Positions 45,190 through 54,100 of a DNA stretch of 64,000 bases are shown here, piece by piece. The DNA comes from Escherichia coli (GTDB lineage Bacteria > Pseudomonadota > Gammaproteobacteria > Enterobacterales > Enterobacteriaceae). The DNA lies in the NCBI RefSeq assembly GCF_024223415.1, contig NZ_CP100500.1. One strand, 5' to 3'. The notes beneath the pieces were generated by a model. That model searched no databases. It was not told where the DNA came from and was given only the letters and a program-made list of their open reading frames with translations. Each line of letters opens with the position of its first letter. The stretch's first letter is position 1. Made by a program: the position numbers and the translations under genes.

Positions 45190-45645
45190 TTATTCAACAC
45201 CTGAATCCCCCGCAGCTTCTCTCCCCTTTATAAAACGCCCCTTCCGGAATCCAGACCGCTGCAGTGCACGACGAAGATGACCGTATACCGTCTTGTCATT
45301 CTGCCCCGTCTCTTCTGTAATCTCCGCAATACTTAAACCTCTGTAATACCGGTTCAGTACCGCTCTGCGCTCTTCCAGCGTCAACACACCTCCGGCCGCT
45401 CTCAGATTCAGCATCGACTTATTCAGAATACAGCAGGCCTCTCCGGTAAAAAGAATACGAACAATATCTGTATACTCATCATCACAGAATACAAAATAAT
45501 ATCTGAATGACCTGCCTGACTGCACCCTTCTTCTGTCTGATATGGCATCTTCTATATATCTGATTCGACTGCTTACGGTTCCAAATATCTCTCGCAGGGC
45601 TTTTTCAAAATAAATATCTCTCGTCGCCAGGATTATATCCAGCAT
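45190..45645 (-). CDS. LuxR/GerE-type HTH transcriptional regulator (prophage accessory)
   Basis: 151-aa ORF; C-terminal LTLEERRAVLNRYYRGLSIAEITEETGQNDKTVYGHLRRALQR fits the GerE/LuxR HTH pattern; Arg codons almost all AGA/AGG/CGA and frequent ATA Ile. Confidence 0.6.
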   Translation of the reverse strand: MLDIILATRDIYFEKALREIFGTVSSRIRYIEDAISDRRRVQSGRSFRYYFVFCDDEYTDIVRILFTGEACCILNKSMLNLRAAGGVLTLEERRAVLNRYYRGLSIAEITEETGQNDKTVYGHLRRALQRSGFRKGRFIKGREAAGDSGVE

Positions 45646-45661
45646 CTCTGTACCTCATTAT

Positions 45662-45682
45662 ATCCCGGGGGACTCCCCCGGG
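45662..45682. other. GC-rich hairpin between eib-like gene and regulator
   Basis: TCCCGGGGG-ACT-CCCCCGGGA, 9-bp perfect stem, no U-tract. Confidence 0.5.
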
Positions 45683-45705
45683 ACAGATATCTAAATCCTG
45701 ACCTG

Positions 45706-46833
45706 TCAGAACTCAAAATTCACACCAGCATTCCACGATGCGGATGACCCACCTGCAGCAACTGCAACTTTTCCTGCCACATTCTCTGTGAAACGGTAGC
45801 CCACGCCCACCGCAATGGCCTGCTCATCACGGTAACCACCAACGGCTGCTGTCGCGTTAAATTTTCCAACACTGTATGGCTGGAAAAGACCGGCCAGTGC
45901 CGCGCTCTGGGCTGCACTCTCCCTTAACTCCTTCCGGTTCTCTTTAATCTGCTCCTGCATATTATTCATTCTCTCTGTCGCCATCTTCTGCCAGGCTTCC
46001 GTCAAATCCAGACGATGACTGTTATTCCTTATCGCTGCTGTATTTGAGGCTATTGCTGCATCCGTCTGCGCCCTGTTCTTCACAAGCACATCGCTGAGAT
46101 GTTCTGCCTGGCTTTTCACCTCGTTACGGACAGTACGCACACTGCTGTCTGTATATGTACGCGTCTCGTCCAGAACATCCGACTTCACCGCATCCGTGTA
46201 TTCCTGCGCAGAAGCCCTGGCAGCTGTAATATTACCGTTAAGTCTGTTTTCTGCCGATTCCACTCGACTCTTAGCATCAGCAACAGCATCACGGTAGACA
46301 GCTCCTATCTCACCGCGCAGGGCATCCCCCGACTCCCGTACAGCATCTGCAATGGCGTTGTCCATCTGTCCTTTTGTGGCCGCATCACTATCCTTAACAC
46401 CATCTGAAACATTTATAATCCGGCGGGTTTCCGGTGCACCATCAACTGAAAATCCATATCCTGAAGGACCGGCCCCTACAGAAAGTACATTGCTTTCTCC
46501 ATTCACCTGAGAGCCATACCCCAGAGCGACACTGTTGTCTGCATTAAAAACAGCTGTATTATTTCCCACAGCCATGGATTTATCCGCATCCCAAATTATT
46601 GCATCGGAACCAACAGCAAAGTTTTTTCCAGTAACACTACCATCACTGTTAAAATTTCCATTTCTGTCAACCACAGTTGCACTTTCAAGTGAATGAGTGC
46701 CATTATCAATCCAGATAATACCCGTCGATGACTCAGTAAGTGTTTTATGAGCCAAAGCCTGAGATGAGAGCAGCAGGGCCACACTCACTGCCAGCGCGCT
46801 TTTCTTTAAAAAAGCATCACGTCTTTTAAGCAT
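45706..46833 (-). CDS. trimeric autotransporter adhesin, Eib-like (E. coli immunoglobulin-binding protein family) candidate
   Basis: 375-aa product from MLKRRDAFLKKSALAVSVALLLSSQALA (signal peptide; SD AGGAG 9 nt upstream); coiled-coil stalk; C-terminal YadA-like anchor ...WNAGVNFEF; Eib genes are known prophage cargo; the ORF track extends 18 codons upstream. Confidence 0.7.
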   Translation of the reverse strand: MLKRRDAFLKKSALAVSVALLLSSQALAHKTLTESSTGIIWIDNGTHSLESATVVDRNGNFNSDGSVTGKNFAVGSDAIIWDADKSMAVGNNTAVFNADNSVALGYGSQVNGESNVLSVGAGPSGYGFSVDGAPETRRIINVSDGVKDSDAATKGQMDNAIADAVRESGDALRGEIGAVYRDAVADAKSRVESAENRLNGNITAARASAQEYTDAVKSDVLDETRTYTDSSVRTVRNEVKSQAEHLSDVLVKNRAQTDAAIASNTAAIRNNSHRLDLTEAWQKMATERMNNMQEQIKENRKELRESAAQSAALAGLFQPYSVGKFNATAAVGGYRDEQAIAVGVGYRFTENVAGKVAVAAGGSSASWNAGVNFEF

Positions 46834-47181
46834 TCTGTTATTCTCCTGTATTATTACTTCACCAGCCAGAACGGTAGTGCGGAGCAAAAATACAGTGATA
46901 AGAATCCTCTTTTATTAATTTAATAATATCAGGAATATTATTGTGTATAATATGCGCCCTCAATTTAAGCAGCAGAAAAGCAATGACGCGAAAATCATTA
47001 AAATACATAAAGATAAAACATCATAACTATAATTATAATAAGCGCGCTTATTTTAGCATCTGAACATTTAAAGTACTGCTATCACAAAACAATAAAAATC
47101 CTGGGTAATATCTCTGATGATTGAATGAGAAATTCACGATGTCTGGTGAGAATTCTGTTCAAAACGAGGAATGCAGACGTA

Positions 47182-47496: not shown

Positions 47497-48072
47497 TCAC
47501 CATCCAACCCTGTACGCCAGAATGGTTTCACTGTCACTCAGTTCTGCTATTGCCTTTTTCATCTCCCTTTGCCTTATATGTATTTCAAGGCCTTTCCTGA
47601 ACATCGCTTTACCAGCAGCATCACTCAGGGATATCAGTTCATCTGCCGTCATCGGTACATCATTATTCTCTGCGTCCGTCCAGAAAAATCCTTCCGGCAA
47701 CACTCCGCCTCTGGCCGCTGATGCCGACATTCCAAGACGTGTCATGGCTTCCTTTCCATAATCCCATTTCCGTCCTCTGTGCTCAAAAACATACCCTGAC
47801 GCCTCCATCGCATCACGCCAGGCATTTATCTCCGCGTTTTTCATCCTGCGTGCTTCTTCCACAGCCATATCATCATTTGCCCGGTACTCACCTACCGGCC
47901 CTGCATCACCTCTTATGCAGGCTTCAAATATTTCACGACCGTAAGACTCAGGATCATCCGCACTTGCTGTAAATACACATTCTGTTTCCGCGTCTGAAAA
48001 CTTCACTATACAGTTTATGGTCGTATGACCCCTGTCAGCCCACACTGGTGACGTGATTTTATCGACCTTCAT
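47497..48072 (-). CDS. hypothetical phage protein at the tail-fibre-assembly (tfa) position
   Basis: 191-aa ORF immediately downstream of the stf-like gene with SD GGGGAGAAA; does not resemble lambda Tfa as far as I can recall; assignment is positional. Confidence 0.4.
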   Translation of the reverse strand: MKVDKITSPVWADRGHTTINCIVKFSDAETECVFTASADDPESYGREIFEACIRGDAGPVGEYRANDDMAVEEARRMKNAEINAWRDAMEASGYVFEHRGRKWDYGKEAMTRLGMSASAARGGVLPEGFFWTDAENNDVPMTADELISLSDAAGKAMFRKGLEIHIRQREMKKAIAELSDSETILAYRVGW

Positions 48073-48086
48073 TCATTTCTCCCCTG

Positions 48087-49892
48087 TCACCGTATTCTCT
48101 GAAACAGGCCCCAAATCGTCCCAATGATATTATTCACTGTCATGTTAGTTGTGCATAACATCCATGTACCAAGCATAGGATTGCCAAATAAAAAGCGGAT
48201 ATCTGTAAGTTTATCCGATGACGACGACACAATAACGGCCTGTCTGATACGATACCCGGGTATTTCACGGGTATTTGTTACCTCATGATTTCGTTCTATG
48301 ATCCCCAGAACATAAGACCCCACGGAATAAACACTTCCGACGCTCGCTGGCTGCCCCGGCTGTCCCTGTGGTCCTGCCGGGCCGCGTTCACCTGTATACC
48401 CTCTTGGCCCCTGAGGACCTGCCGGGCCGCGTTCACCTGTATCCCCCTTTAGTCCCTGTGGACCTGCCGGACCGCGTTCACCTGTATCGCCCTTTGGTCC
48501 CTGTGGACCACGCTCCCCCTGGGCTCCCAGCTCTTTCCATTCAGACCAGGGGCCATTACCGGTAAAATTACCAGTAACAGTTCTTACGAACTTTCGTGGT
48601 GGGTTCCAGGTTGTATATTCATGCTGGCAATATCCCCATGCACCAACTCTTACCTGAAGATAACCCGCTCTCTGAATCGGATAATTATTTTCTCGTGTAG
48701 CCCCACTGTCTGATGGCTGATAATAATCACCCTGATCGGTCACTCGTCCCAGTCGGTTCAGATCACCATTCAGCAGTTGTCCACGGGCTGACTCTCCTCT
48801 TGGTCCCTGAGGACCTGCCGGACCGCGTGCTCCTGTTTCACCTTTTGCTCCCTGTGGACCTGTCGGACCGCGTTCACCTGTTTCACCTTTTGGTCCCTGT
48901 GGTCCTGCCGGGCCGCGTTCACCTGTTTCACCCTTTGCTCCCTGTGGACCTTCCGGGCCACGTTCACCTGTATCCCCCTTTGGTCCCTGAGGACCTGCCG
49001 GGCCACGTTCACCTGTATCGCCCTTTGATCCCTGTGGACCTGCCGGGCCGCGTTCACCTGTATCCCCCTTTGGTCCCTGTGGACCTCCCGGATCTCCTTT
49101 ATCCCCCTTAGGGCCTTTTTCTCCTCGCTCACCCTTTTCTCCCTTCAGACCCTGAGGGCCTTCCGGACCACGTGCACCTGTTTCGCCCTTTGCTCCCTGT
49201 GGACCTGCCGGGCCGCGTTCACCTGTTTCGCCCTTTGCTCCCTGTGGACCTGCCGGGCCGCGTGCACCTGTTTCACCCTTTGGTCCCTGTGGACCTGCCG
49301 GGCCGCGTTCACCTGTATCGCCCTTTAGTCCCTGTGGACCTGCCGGACCGCGTTCACCTGTTTCACCTTTTGGTCCCTGTGGTCCTGCCGGGCCACGTGC
49401 TCCTGTTTCACCTTTTGGCCCCTGTGGCCCGGTAATGCCTCTTTCACCACGAGCGCCGGTATCCCCTTTCTCTCCTCGTGGTCCCCGGGCAGATGCTGCT
49501 CGTTTCCGGGCTTCCTCCGCCTCAGATGCCGCGGACTCTGCTCTGTGCAGTATGGACTGCACCACAGCCTCCAGCTCTGACAACGCCTTCGGATAATAAG
49601 GAGCATCTTCCAGCTCCATCAGAAATTTATTCAGTGTTCCCGGTGAAGAATCCTCCCTGACCACGATATCTCCCACATACGAAGGACGGTAACCTTCTGT
49701 ATTGAGTGTCACCCTGTATATTCCTGGCTCCACATCCATACTGTAACTCCCCGTCTCTTCCGGCATGCCATAAGCCACTGTCGTGGCGATGACTGTCTCG
49801 CTGGTTCTCTTCGCTTTCAGCTCAATAATGCATCCCGGTACCGGTTTTCCGGTTCCGTCCCTCAGCACGCCTGAAATTTTTACAGCCGCCAT
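48087..49892 (-). CDS. stf: side tail fibre protein (Stf-like) with collagen-like G-X-Y repeats
   Basis: 601-aa ORF; N-terminus [18 protein letters not shown]... resembles lambda Stf N-domain; two long blocks of GPxGxKGxTGxRG repeats; distinct C-terminal domain. Confidence 0.8.
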
Positions 49893-49964
49893 ACTCGCTC
49901 CATAAAAAATAATCCCGCAAAATTGCGGGCGTCGTCATTCATTTACAATCGGGTGTTTTTATGA

Positions 49965-50231: not shown

Positions 50232-50894
50232 TCAGTACGCATCATAAATTTCTGCATTTATGTAATAACAGAGGTTATTAACAACACCTGAATTATCATT
50301 GGGCGCCGCTACGTTATCTTCAGCAAAAGTTGACTGACGCCATAACTGTGAGTTTCTGGCATTAAAACTGGCGGTATACCAGTAATAACTCTCCCCTTCC
50401 TGAACTGTCGTCCACTGGGTACACCCCGGCATTACGGCCACATCATGTCCCACACTGATCGGTACATCCTTTTCCCATATTCGCGTCATTTTTACTTCCA
50501 GTGGCAGCATTTCCGTGTTCCAGACCACCCTGCCATGACTGTCGCACAACTGTATTCCCCATTGCGGCCATACATTCACCATGTTGGCAAAAACATAAAC
50601 AACATATGTGCTGTCCTGTTCCATGCCCGGCTCCTGCCCTGTACCAGCGCTGAAAATGTCATACTGCCAGGTACCGTTAAGCTGAACCATTTCACCATGG
50701 AAGGACTGATTACCGCTTATCTGTTTAATAAAAATCACGCAACGATAATTCGTCGGCACCCCAGTGTCGATAAACTGCATCACCGCATCACGCGCACTCA
50801 GTGTGAAATGAAAACGGCGCACAAGGTTCAGTGGCGGCGCAACAGGTGATATCCATTCTCTCCCCCGCTCATCAGTTAATTTAAGTGCAAACAT
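50232..50894 (-). CDS. hypothetical tail-associated protein
   Basis: 220-aa ORF; start ATG overlaps stop of upstream 86-aa ORF (ATGA). Confidence 0.55.
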   Translation of the reverse strand: MFALKLTDERGREWISPVAPPLNLVRRFHFTLSARDAVMQFIDTGVPTNYRCVIFIKQISGNQSFHGEMVQLNGTWQYDIFSAGTGQEPGMEQDSTYVVYVFANMVNVWPQWGIQLCDSHGRVVWNTEMLPLEVKMTRIWEKDVPISVGHDVAVMPGCTQWTTVQEGESYYWYTASFNARNSQLWRQSTFAEDNVAAPNDNSGVVNNLCYYINAEIYDAY

Positions 50895-51154
50895 CAGATC
50901 CCCCTTATCATGACCAGCACGGGTCTTAACCAGCTTGTGTTGGCATAGTGCACTGTCCAGCCGGATACACTGGCACTGGTATGACTTCCCTGACCGTTAA
51001 TCAGAATGGCCGGTGAACAGACTTCCAGACGCCAGCCCTGCAAAGGAGTATAAGAACGCTGCCCCGTCCCTTCAGTGATCACATCCAGCACCCCTGTTGG
51101 GTTTATTTCATGTGTCACAAGGCGCCCTTTGCGCCATACCCGGACTCCGAACAT
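50894..51154 (-). CDS. hypothetical small protein coupled to J
   Basis: 86-aa ORF; start overlaps J stop (TAATG). Confidence 0.5.
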   Translation of the reverse strand: MFGVRVWRKGRLVTHEINPTGVLDVITEGTGQRSYTPLQGWRLEVCSPAILINGQGSHTSASVSGWTVHYANTSWLRPVLVMIRGI

Positions 51155-54100
51155 TACAGTCTCCCCAGTCGTACTCTTAACACATTGTTATCGTCATATA
51201 CGTCGATTCGCTCGCCATTGAAAAACAGGCGGCCTGCGCCGGGCCTTCCTGAGTTAATTTCAAGGCTGCCGTTTCTTGATAAACGCCACCCCGGACTACC
51301 GGAATGAAAATTATCTGACCGGATATCTCCCGTCACTCTGGCAAAATCCACGGTCAGTTTTTTCATGAAAACATCATTCATGAACAGCTGATCACCCTGA
51401 GCCACAAACAAAGGTGTTGTATTGCCATTTTCCGGGTTAATCATCGCAATACGATCTGCCTGCATCAGGATCTGACTCTGAATTCCGTCAGACGTATTTT
51501 CGATTCCGGCACCAATACCTGCAATATAGAGACGTCCATCCCGTGTCTGCTGCAGCTTCACAGCCCACATGCTGTTCAGGTTCCGGCGCGTGTCCTCCTG
51601 AACTTTCTGTATCTGCTCAATGCTGGCATTCCAGGATCCCAGTTTTTTATCCGTGCTCTGTGTGATCTGACTTCCCTTATCATCAACATACTGTCTGATC
51701 TGCGCTATCTGTCGGCTGTTCTCCTCCGTGCTCCTGCTTACTGTCTGCCGGATTTCGCTTCCCATCCTGTCAACTTTTCTGTCAACTTCCGCAATGGCCA
51801 TTGACTGTTCAGCGCTCTTTTTCGCCACAACAGTACTTATTTGCGCACTTTTATCATCAACATACTGCCTGACCTGCGCTATCTGTCGGCTGTTCTCCTC
51901 CGTGCTCCTGCTCACTGTCTGCCGGATTTCACTGCTCACGCTGTCAACTTTCCTGTCGACTTTCGCAATGGCCAGCGACTGTTCACCGCTCTTTTTCGCC
52001 ACCAGTTCCGTTATGCTGTTTTCAGACGCCGTGATTTTTTTCGTCACCTCTGCGATATCACGCTCCGCACGCTGCCTCACATCTTTCTCCAGCTGCGTCA
52101 TTTCGCGGTTAATCGCATTCTCCAGTTGCTCAACTTCAGTGCGCCGTGCAGAGGCATCAATGCGTTCATTGATCTCCCGTCCCAGATGCGTTTTATTTAT
52201 CGCCCCCCTGAAAAAATTAAGGTAACCGGCAGGATCATTACTCGCCCGACCGACTGCCTCCACGAATGCCGATTTACCGACAGTGTTAACACTGCGGATA
52301 TAAAAGTAATAATCATGGCCAGGTTTAATATTCTGGCCGGAGACAAGCCACTGACTTCCGGTACCAAGATAACGGGCTGTGGTTTCAACCTGCCTGATAT
52401 CGGTAATCCGCGTTTCCGAGAACCAGAACTCAAACTGTACCGTCGGATCGTAAACCGCAAGATGCGGCGTGGCGGTTATCTGAAAATAGCCCGGCGTCAG
52501 CTCAATCCGCGACGGCGCTGCCGGTGCGGCAATCCGGAACGATACCGACGCCGGGTCTCCCTGCTGCCCCCGGGCATTTACTGCCCGGACTGTCAGCCTG
52601 TAGTTCCCCGGCGCCAGCTGCCTGAAGCGGTATGTGGTTTCCGTCGTCCGGGCCGTGCTGACCAGCCGCTCACTGCCATCATCCGCGGCCACGGTCAGGC
52701 GAAGCAGGAAGCTCACGCCCTTCACCACCTTCGGCGTGTCCCAGCGCGCCAGCACCTGATATTCCCCGCTGTCTGCGGTGACTTCTGCGGTCAGGTGCTG
52801 CACCGCTGGCGGCGTGACACCATTCACCGTTCCGCTCTGGTCGCCGTCAAAGTGCGCCCCGTTATCCACGATGGCCTCTTTTTCCGGTACATGCTGCACG
52901 GCAGTGATGGCATACGTGCCGTCGTCGTTCTCACGGATACTCACGCAGCGGAACAGGCGCTGGCGCAGCGTCGGCAGCTTCAGCCCCCACACGCTGTACT
53001 CGGCAACGCCGTCAGGAACCCGGCTCACTTTTACCTTCACGCCGTCGGTGACGGACTGAACCTCCACGCTGACCGGATTGCCACTTCCGTCAACCAGACT
53101 TATCAGCGTGGTACCGGAGGATGGCAGCGTGATTTCACGGTCGAGCGTCAGCGTCCGGGTCTGGCTGTTCACCGCCAGCACACGACCACCGGTGCTGATA
53201 CCGGCATAGTCATCATCACAGATTTCAATGACATCGCCCGGTACATGGCGAAGCCCTTCAGCACCCACGCTGAAATCCACGGTCTGCGTCTCCAGCAGTT
53301 CTGTTTTAATCAGCCACAGCCCGGCGCGGTGTGCCTGCCCCCGGCTGGTACAGCCAAAGGCATCCATCTTCGTGACGTTACGACCGTAACGGGCAATGGC
53401 CTGCGTGTCCTCCACAAGCTCTGTCGCCGTCTCCTGGCCGTTATCCGGGTCACTCCAGTTCACCTCAACGGCATTATGGCGGTCCTTCAGGGCGCTGAAG
53501 CTGTAGCGGAACGGCGCGCCATCATCCGGCATCACCACATTACTGCGGTTATAGGTCCACACCTTATCCGACGGTCGGTCCTGCACGAACGTCAGCGTCT
53601 GCCCGTTCCATACCGGCATACAGCGCATCGCCGAGCAGAAATCACTGAGCACATCCCACGCCTTACGCTGCCTGGTCAGCCAGGCATTACAGGTGATGCG
53701 CGGCTCCGTGCCACCAGAGCCGTCCGGCACCGACTGGTCGCAGTACTGGCCGATGACATACAGCGCCCATTTGTCCACATCCGCTGCGCCAACACGTTTC
53801 CCCATGCCGTAGCGCGGGTGGGTCAGCATATCCCACAGACACCAGGCCGGGTTATCGCTGTATGCCGGTTTAAACGTTCCGTCCCAGATACCGCTGTATT
53901 GCCGCGTCTGCGGGTTATAGTTCGACGGCACCTGCAGAATGCGCCCGCGAAGATGATAATTACGGCTCACCTGCTGGCTGCCGAACTGCTCCGAATCCAC
54001 CTGCACACCGACCAGTGCCGTGTTCGGGTAGCACTGTTTCACATCGATGATTTCGGTGTATGACGACCAGAGCGTTTTGTTCTGCAGCTGGTCTGTGGTG

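Follow-up and report, generated by a model that had tools for sequence, protein, structure and literature searches.

A lambda-like J with an exchanged tip and a probable two-protein receptor-binding cassette in Escherichia coli

Proteins encoded beside the central tail fibre of described phages

In two large surveys, the terminal receptor of small siphoviruses was predictable from the locus beside gpJ (PMC8594841; bioRxiv 10.64898/2026.04.02.716166); the second survey delimits receptor-specific families of receptor-binding proteins (RBPs) by a criterion of >30% full-length identity. In N15, gene 21 (J) is followed by genes 22 (100 aa), 23 (225 aa) and 24 (cor), an annotated terminator and gene 25 (fibre), and stop codons overlap start codons. 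T1 has the same type of arrangement, gp33-gp32-gp31 plus cor, and the same cassette is present in HK022, phi80 and ES18, which like N15 and T1 are FhuA-dependent phages (PMC13164509). Within the BASEL collection, phages with the module are associated with FhuA, and BtuB is the reported receptor of a Tempevirinae phage carrying a Cor-like protein and the large protein of the module. Because the distal end of T1 gp33 is unresolved in situ, a siphovirus tip bearing these proteins is found in no structure.

The N4-like Pseudomonas podovirus DEV has an essential operon, gp56-gp55-gp54 (a fibre, a protein of ~99 aa and one of ~223 aa), whose genes are transcribed together and overlap at their stop and start codons; gp54 occurs in virions, and an lptD receptor mutation is suppressed by mutations in gp54 (PMC12892993). 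An AF3 model, the only published model of such a complex, places one gp55 and one gp54 at the tip of a gp56 trimer (3:1:1, ipTM 0.8; PMC12892993). In the Stx phage phi24B, gp54 (204 aa, the large homologue) was found in the structural proteome and gp55 (the small one) was undetected by MS; in negative-stain EM the needle tip shows additional asymmetric density, for which the BamA-binding protein has been proposed (bioRxiv 10.64898/2026.04.10.717836). For Dhillonvirus, Traversvirus and Littlefixvirus, AF2-Multimer models have the large protein seated at the tip of the spike, and the computed membrane affinity of the homologues called 'membrane associated' is negligible or marginal (Matusiak et al., PMC12309495). 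Finally, the RBP of Oekolampad (Bas18) and Rtp44 (PDB 9RPT/9RQI) are single-chain, LptDE-binding proteins of ~310 aa. As a monomer on its own, the Oekolampad RBP binds the receptor directly; the part of it nearest the tail is described as poorly ordered.

Experiments on relatives are only beginning to establish what this type of module does. Here we describe two ORFs, of 86 and 220 codons (ORF86 and ORF220), behind a lambda-like J in a window of 64,000 nucleotides of E. coli DNA, the window being the whole stretch that was analysed. The cassette is of an already known type (N15, T1, phi24B, DEV), in a rare and divergent version. The locus is a lambda chimera of natural origin whose host-range cassette is also found in Stx-like prophages, and no new principle is involved.

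Layout of the locus and the exchanged tip of J

Gene order in the window is J-ORF86-ORF220-cor-like-stf-tfa (Table 1), against J-lom-stf-tfa in lambda, so the statement of the first-pass annotation that the two ORFs replace lom is right as far as position goes. It was also right on the coordinates and sizes of both ORFs, and left unstated that all three genes lie on the minus strand. As it had read, the J stop overlaps the ORF86 start: TAA and ATG share 1 base (TAATG), and the junction reads ...CTGGGGAGACTGTAATG (also given as GGGGAGACTGTAATG). The ATGA overlap that it had given for the second junction has to be corrected, as the TGA stop of ORF86 and the ATG of ORF220 share 1 nt and not 4 (TGATG; the junction reads ...AAGGGGGATCTGATG). 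Each of the two starts has a good Shine-Dalgarno site inside the preceding gene. N15 and T1 resemble the window in the order of their genes, in the sizes of the pair (~100 and ~225 aa), in their start/stop overlaps and in the Cor lipoprotein gene and terminator that stand ahead of the side-fibre gene. On the right, the J-ORF86-ORF220-cor unit is closed by the hairpin that follows the cor-like gene, which is GC-rich and lies at 49929-49914.

Table 1. Features of the J locus in the window
Feature	Position	Strand	Remark
J, central tail fibre / tip attachment protein, 1169 aa	51154-54663	-	stop TAA 51156-51154
J residues 837-1011, 175-aa coiled-coil insertion	51631-52155	-	absent from lambda J
174-nt tandem duplication	51677-52002	-	inside the coiled-coil insertion
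J residues 1105-1169, 65-aa tip without receptor-binding domain	51157-51351	-	presumed docking site of ORF86/ORF220
Shine-Dalgarno-like GGGGAG	51161-51166	-	6 nt 5' of the ORF86 ATG, within the J 3' end; read from sequence
ORF86	50894-51154	-	ATG 51154-51152, stop TGA 50896-50894
Shine-Dalgarno-like AAGGGGGA	50899-50906	-	4-5 nt 5' of the ORF220 ATG, within the ORF86 3' end; read from sequence
ORF220	50232-50894	-	ATG 50894-50892
Cor-like lipoprotein gene, 81 aa	49965-50210	-	lipobox LVSGC; 21 bases past ORF220
Terminator-like hairpin CCCGCAATTTTGCGGG and T-run	49904-49929	-	between the cor-like gene and stf
Collagen-like side fibre gene (stf)	48087-49892	-	
DUF4376 tail-fibre assembly gene (tfa)	47497-48072	-	

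That ORF86 and ORF220 are real genes, rather than chance ORFs, follows from their protein identities of 63% and 52% to a cassette in other prophages (against ~65% identity at the DNA level), from their matches to phage families and from their confident folds. We prefer the 86-aa start of ORF86 to a 74-aa start because its first 12 residues carry the motif FG.x.W..G, which is conserved in all small-protein homologues; the PGAP annotation of ORF86 in strain GF60 is truncated and uses the 74-aa start. Elsewhere in the tail region, a YadA-like adhesin gene and a lipoprotein gene, which we take as morons, are located between I and J.

The body of the fibre is lambda's own, whereas N15 and T1 have N15-type and T1-type J proteins. 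BLASTP aligned J residues 1-836 with lambda J at 93% identity and residues 1012-1104 with lambda J 841-934 at 56% identity, the coiled-coil insertion lying between the two. Past residue 1104, BLASTP against lambda J shows no similarity: a 65-aa tip stands in place of the ~200-aa (198-aa) LamB-binding end of lambda J. Residues 1015-1140 correspond to Pfam PF09327 (Phage_Tail_Tip), and the C-terminus aligns with DEV gp56 (E 3e-11), with the fibre ends of T1, N15, JLBYU60, JenP1 and haarsle, and with the ~421-aa Stx needle. The J adjoining ORF86 and ORF220 thus ends in a conserved tip (PF09327 ... V.D..G.LRV..G.L), and the same is true of all comparison loci in which the adjacent fibre gene is present. 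Since its 65-aa end is unrelated to that of lambda and resembles fibre ends devoid of a receptor-binding domain, we conclude that this J is a lambda tail fibre whose covalent receptor-binding domain has been removed. In lambda this domain (residues 935-1132) is part of J; in the window it is deleted and replaced, in the corresponding functional slot at the far end of the fibre, by separate proteins. A detachable receptor-binding end of J would explain how a phage with a near-pure lambda tail can give up LamB.

Families, folds and repeated domains of the two proteins

ORF220 matched PHROG 425 over residues 1-218 of 220 (E 3.3e-27), and ORF86 matched PHROG 557 weakly (E 2.8e-4). These families go by the legacy names 'membrane associated protein' and 'outer membrane protein', and annotation pipelines label such genes with these names or as 'hypothetical'. 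Pfam and NCBIfam contain no model for either ORF, matches to Inhibitor_I78 and RHS being weak and below cut-off. Searching 50,697 phage records with ORF86 by tblastn gave no match, and all matches of ORF220 in the phage-record search were at 29% identity or less. A word-indexed protein search returned only 2 clusters for ORF220 and 6 for ORF86. When 1.84 billion representative proteins were scanned exhaustively with an HMM, 56 clusters emerged for ORF220, nearly all of 202-245 aa and matched end to end; it took this exhaustive search to make the family visible. Two long repeat proteins of the HMM hit list (P0030 and P0042), which look like repetitive Ig/VCBS-type proteins, were left aside.

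Profiles were built from 50 of the 56 large-protein clusters (A2) and from nine small proteins including ORF86 (A3). Full-length matches of A2 were obtained with N15 gp23 (2.8e-31), T1 gp31 (1.6e-25) and JLBYU60 gp26 (7e-27), and A3 matched N15 gp22 (1.2e-21), T1 gp32 (3.4e-16) and an 82-aa protein of L018 (9.5e-15), three proteins from outside its own training set. By hhalign, similarity to DEV gp54 (probability 91%, E 9.5e-7) covered residues 1-132 only, the C-half being not detectably similar, and a 10-residue N-terminal motif alone aligned with DEV gp55 (probability 1.3%). ORF86 belongs with N15 gp22, T1 gp32 and Stx gp27, and ORF220 is a homologue of N15 gp23, T1 gp31, phi24B gp54, JLBYU60 gp26 and the N-half of DEV gp54. 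The first-pass annotation could assign neither ORF to a known family; both fit PHROG 557/425, N15 gp22/gp23 and T1 gp32/gp31. Identity of the window proteins to every characterised relative is nevertheless below 30%.

The AF2 model of ORF86 (pLDDT 84.9) is an all-beta, small beta-sandwich, and that of ORF220 (pLDDT 91.7) has a two-domain all-beta fold. A fold search with ORF86 returned no specific structural neighbour, its fold being that of a generic small beta-sandwich. The predicted fold of ORF220 matched a solved RBP of the Oekolampad/Rtp44, LptDE-binding type. Sequence searches of the PDB, phmmer included, had given no match, nor had one with haarsle gp37, and the Oekolampad/Rtp44 RBP was at first regarded as unrelated, a view overturned by the fold search. 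Identity is ~11%, and profile A2 aligned with Rtp44 residues 117-295 with marginal support (hhalign probability 69%). The two systems share the predicted fold and differ in that the single chain of ~310 aa corresponds to 86 + 220 aa in the window, and in that the genes in Rtp are convergent with J. The superinfection-exclusion lipoprotein of the Rtp system is Rtp45. The haarsle and JenP1 pairs are not the LptD module of Maffei et al., which is Rtp44/Rtp45.

Neither ORF contains a signal peptide, lipobox, transmembrane or hydrophobic segment. Features of a Lom/Ail outer-membrane beta-barrel are likewise absent from both, as judged by the missing Pfam match, the missing hydrophobic N-terminus and the soluble beta-sandwich models; lambda Lom is an exported beta-barrel, whereas ORF86 and ORF220 are without export signals. 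This bears on the idea that the ORFs are lysogenic-conversion morons serving neither the virion nor exclusion, suggested by the fact that the slot between J and stf holds lom in lambda and that other morons lie nearby, namely the YadA-like adhesin and the lipoprotein. Besides the lack of export signals, the idea is at odds with the overlap of the genes with the late operon and with the absence of any promoter signal above background for them. Moreover, linkage to J-like fibres has been kept across siphoviruses and podoviruses of E. coli and Pseudomonas, and canonical Stx phages carry the pair alongside lom. We consider such a role hardly credible, and in its lom-like form it is excluded by the features of the sequences.

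The 81-aa lipoprotein encoded past ORF220 matched the Cor family PHROG 1119 (E 8e-7) and PHROG 27799 (E 1e-8), and scored 28.4 bits against NCBIfam NF047972, lamb_exclu_cor (E 1.2e-6; cut-off 31). It is 28% identical to N15 Cor (E 3e-4) and 48% identical to an 81-aa lipoprotein that follows the related cassette in Stx-like prophages. Presumably, it is a divergent Cor-like protein, a superinfection-exclusion factor matched to the receptor of the cassette. We did not retain the naming of a receptor through this protein, as its similarity to annotated Cor was weak (3 phage matches, E ~1e-2 to 3e-3).

The proximity of this gene raises another explanation, in which ORF86 and ORF220 are host-envelope accessories of Cor superinfection exclusion, made by the prophage and not part of the virion. 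The ORFs lie directly upstream of the cor-like gene, with no terminator-like hairpin seen between ORF220 and that gene, and an exclusion role was proposed for the T1 homologues in the KanT1 paper, in which they had no structural hits (PMC13164509). This explanation is very improbable in our opinion. The neighbouring lipoprotein has a lipobox, and the ORFs lack it along with any signal peptide or hydrophobic segment; the computed membrane affinity of homologues is marginal (Matusiak et al., PMC12309495); and canonical Stx phages and DEV have homologous pairs but no cor gene. In addition, the large homologue is found in virions, DEV gp54 mutations alter receptor use, and the fold of ORF220 matches that of a solved RBP.

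A further relationship was detected within the pair. The small-protein profile aligned with the N-domain of the large protein (hhalign probability 94.8%, E 5e-8), and the N-half of the large family with its C-half (probability 85%, E 6e-6). Each of the three resulting units, of ~100 aa, starts with a hairpin motif, aromatic-G-x-x-x-x-D-x-x-G ... P-L, whose copies read FGVRVWRKG...P in ORF86, FALKLTDERG...PPL at the N-terminus of ORF220 and WGIQLCDSHG...PL at ORF220 112-132. The motif is present once in small and twice in large proteins across most subfamilies examined; the pattern is visible in N15, T1, JLBYU60 and JenP1, and partly in the Stx and DEV proteins. Rtp44 (311 aa) has it at residues 3, 114 and 208, positions that fall in the density gaps of the Oekolampad RBP cryo-EM map (1-25, 113-142 and 206-234), although no similarity in sequence to the first third of Rtp44 could be detected for the small proteins. 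We propose from these alignments that ORF86 (one domain) and ORF220 (two) could be three homologous ~100-aa beta domains capping a threefold fibre, of which Rtp44 and the Oekolampad RBP would be the fused form. A 1+2 split of domains fits the 3:1:1 model predicted for DEV and, if confirmed, would provide a simple structural rule for monomeric RBPs on trimeric fibres.

Probable role at the J tip and exchange of the cassette

We conclude that ORF86 and ORF220 are probably virion proteins, an adaptor and an RBP on the J trimer, which supply in trans the receptor-binding end lost by the lambda-like J and come with a matching exclusion lipoprotein. The idea of the first-pass annotation that the ORFs are additional tail-tip or receptor-binding components thus gains support, from homology and from the predicted fold. 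From what is known of relatives, we infer the virion location, the 3:1:1 assembly, the binding of a receptor and the exclusion. J would form a trimeric central fibre ending in a short beta-prism tip, on which one ORF220 and one ORF86 would dock. ORF220 would contact an E. coli outer-membrane protein and thereby trigger DNA delivery, with ORF86 acting as adaptor and stabiliser (or, presumably, as a third docking domain within the tip cap). The Cor-like lipoprotein would block the same receptor from the periplasmic side, in lysogens or in infected cells.

Small genes placed 3' of fibre genes often encode chaperones, and one or both ORFs might instead assist assembly of the J tip, as Tfa does, without being retained, in which case the J tip itself would bind the receptor. 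The failure to detect phi24B gp55, the small protein, by MS and the generic fold of ORF86, with no specific structural match, are compatible with this, and for ORF86 alone a chaperone role is plausible. As an explanation of the locus we nevertheless hold it to be unlikely: in relatives the large protein is associated with virions, and in DEV it is the site of the host-range mutations; ORF220 is similar to an RBP that, when isolated, binds the receptor directly; and the J tip, described as a 'relatively simple surface', is highly conserved among phages with different receptors.

In the preferred reading, of an adaptor and an RBP mounted on J, the closest functional precedents differ from the window in several respects. 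DEV has two 4-nt overlaps, where the window has TAATG and TGATG, and is devoid of the exclusion lipoprotein that in the window is Cor-like. Stx/phi24B (Traversvirus) gp56-gp55-gp54 includes a homologous PHROG 557/425 pair behind a fibre with the same C-terminal tip; however, this fibre is a podovirus needle of ~421 aa and not a siphovirus J, and the canonical Stx pair, only 25-31% identical, is followed by lom with no cor-like gene, whereas the window has a cor-like gene and no lom. N15 and T1 share with the window a J end without receptor-binding domain and full-length profile matches to both proteins. The large protein of the window is 22-24% identical over ~120 residues to the FhuA-associated RBPs of T1, N15 and JLBYU60. 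With these values and 28% for Cor, under the >30% criterion, FhuA specificity is not transferable to the window.

The only close relatives of ORF220 are P0002 (52% identity) and P0003 (49%). P0002 is encoded in Stx-like short-tailed prophages, recognisable by a ~2,790-aa LPD5/MuF protein, behind a 421-aa needle, and the identity of its cassette to that of the window is 63% for the 86-aa ORF, 52% for the large protein and 48% for the 81-aa lipoprotein. DNA homology between the window and this podovirus locus starts ~10 nt ahead of the J stop, and the unit of exchange is therefore ORF86-ORF220-lipoprotein. We suggest that these three genes would be exchanged as one cassette, bounded on the left by the last few J codons. 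The needle of the P0002 locus is 86% identical to the canonical Stx needle, with a near-identical C-terminus, despite which the pairs behind the two needles are 25-31% identical; the conserved fibre end can therefore accept different pairs.

These comparisons qualify two further statements of the first-pass annotation. Its view that the ORFs co-vary with the J C-terminus stands for the type of tip, as every pair examined lies beside a fibre tip without receptor-binding domain, and fails for the allele, as the 86%-identical Stx needles carry pairs of 25-31% identity. Its deduction of a fixed stoichiometry with J from the tight coupling of the genes does not hold: the DEV model is 3:1:1, and among relatives, although the overlap of the small and large genes is conserved, the junction of J with the small gene varies, being in T1 a 45-nt gap with a terminator.

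Put together, these elements lead to a more detailed picture, which we offer tentatively and regard as possible but somewhat doubtful. The pair would form a pseudo-threefold cap, each domain docking one J subunit through its N-terminal hairpin, which would create one asymmetric receptor-binding face; Rtp44 and the Oekolampad RBP would be its fused form, the receptor would lie outside FhuA, BtuB, LptD and BamA, and the cassette would be moving between lambda-like siphoviruses and Stx-type podoviruses.

That versions of one cassette type are found behind a siphovirus J and also behind the Stx-like prophage needle is relevant to the host range of Shiga-toxin phages. The cassette is compact, consisting of the last J codons, the genes of the two proteins and that of the exclusion lipoprotein, and its transfer could give lambda-type phages a new target. 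It is a candidate for an uncatalogued receptor specificity, because the allele is rare and is less than 30% identical to the members linked to FhuA, BtuB, BamA and LptD. No sequenced phage isolate was found to carry the allele of the window. Nine of 5,426 complete E. coli genomes have it, always adjoining J (strains GF60, TUM9803 and AR_0085 are among the carriers), and two contigs with identical loci were found in IMG/VR with a 2-sequence alignment as query. More distant members of the family keep a similar setting: at the P0003 locus, a J gene is followed by an overlapping 86-aa ORF and then by P0003, and the family member 29% identical to ORF220 is preceded by J and an 82-aa ORF.

Relatives of the presumed tip module

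Three copies of the hairpin motif (aromatic-G-x-x-x-x-D-x-x-G ... P-L) were found in Rtp44 of phage Rtp, at residues 3, 114 and 208, and their positions coincide with the three segments absent from the cryo-EM density of the Oekolampad receptor-binding protein (RBP). This coincidence suggests that Rtp44 corresponds, in one chain, to the pair of small and large proteins (in the window ORF86 and ORF220, encoded after the central tail fibre gene J). In L018, a comparison locus whose large protein is a distant family member (29% identical to ORF220), the RBP gene is adjoined by a gene for a secreted protein with a TonB domain, which occupies the slot held in the window by the Cor-like lipoprotein. 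This 85-aa protein may act as a TonB-box decoy, excluding phages that use a TonB-dependent receptor.

Two proteins, P0030 (1338 aa, 13 matched stretches) and P0042 (821 aa, 4 stretches), also scored in the ORF220 HMM search, against residues ~54-132. Both are long and repetitive, resemble generic Ig/VCBS-type repeats and are probably not true relatives.

In E. coli GF60, the PGAP annotation gives the ORF86 homologue only 74 aa, from a later start. Among the entries of the protein collection, too, a number of gene callers arrived at 74 aa (L007-L011). With the later PGAP start, the conserved N-terminal motif is lost and the overlap with J is hidden.

Additions to the tail operon and the prophage end

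In lambda, genes I and J are separated by a 60-bp gap only, whereas in the window a lipoprotein-like ORF lies between them. It had no match in Pfam or NCBIfam, and is probably a moron within the tail operon. J itself carries a coiled-coil insertion, with an internal duplication, that would lengthen the central fibre.

The collagen-like side fibre is of the type treated for phi24B gp61 and lambda_2B8 (phi24B preprint, bioRxiv 10.64898/2026.04.10.717836). Further on, the end of the prophage that lies near btsS carries the YadA-like adhesin and the sigma-70 region-4 HTH protein as cargo. GF60 has the adhesin gene as a pseudogene, with an IS66 insertion close by.

Features in the window and in the comparison loci
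Feature	Location	Strand	Remarks
Secreted protein, 85 aa	L018 5696-5953	(-)	TonB C-terminal domain (Pfam, 51 bits)
rtp44 (phage Rtp)	L023 8753-9688	(-)	Rtp44, 311 aa
ORF86 homologue, GF60 (RefSeq)	L005 8995-9219		PGAP call
Lipoprotein-like ORF, 116 aa	54730-55080	(-)	MNKTILFCTIIALTGC...; between I and J
Coiled-coil insertion in J, 175 aa	51631-52155	(-)	No counterpart in lambda J
Tandem repeat within insertion	51677-52002	(-)	174-nt (58-aa) duplication, 90% identity
Collagen-like side fibre gene (stf)	48087-49892	(-)	
YadA-like trimeric autotransporter and sigma-70 region-4 HTH protein	45190-46887	(-)	Downstream of tfa; autotransporter 393 aa, anchor domain 2e-16
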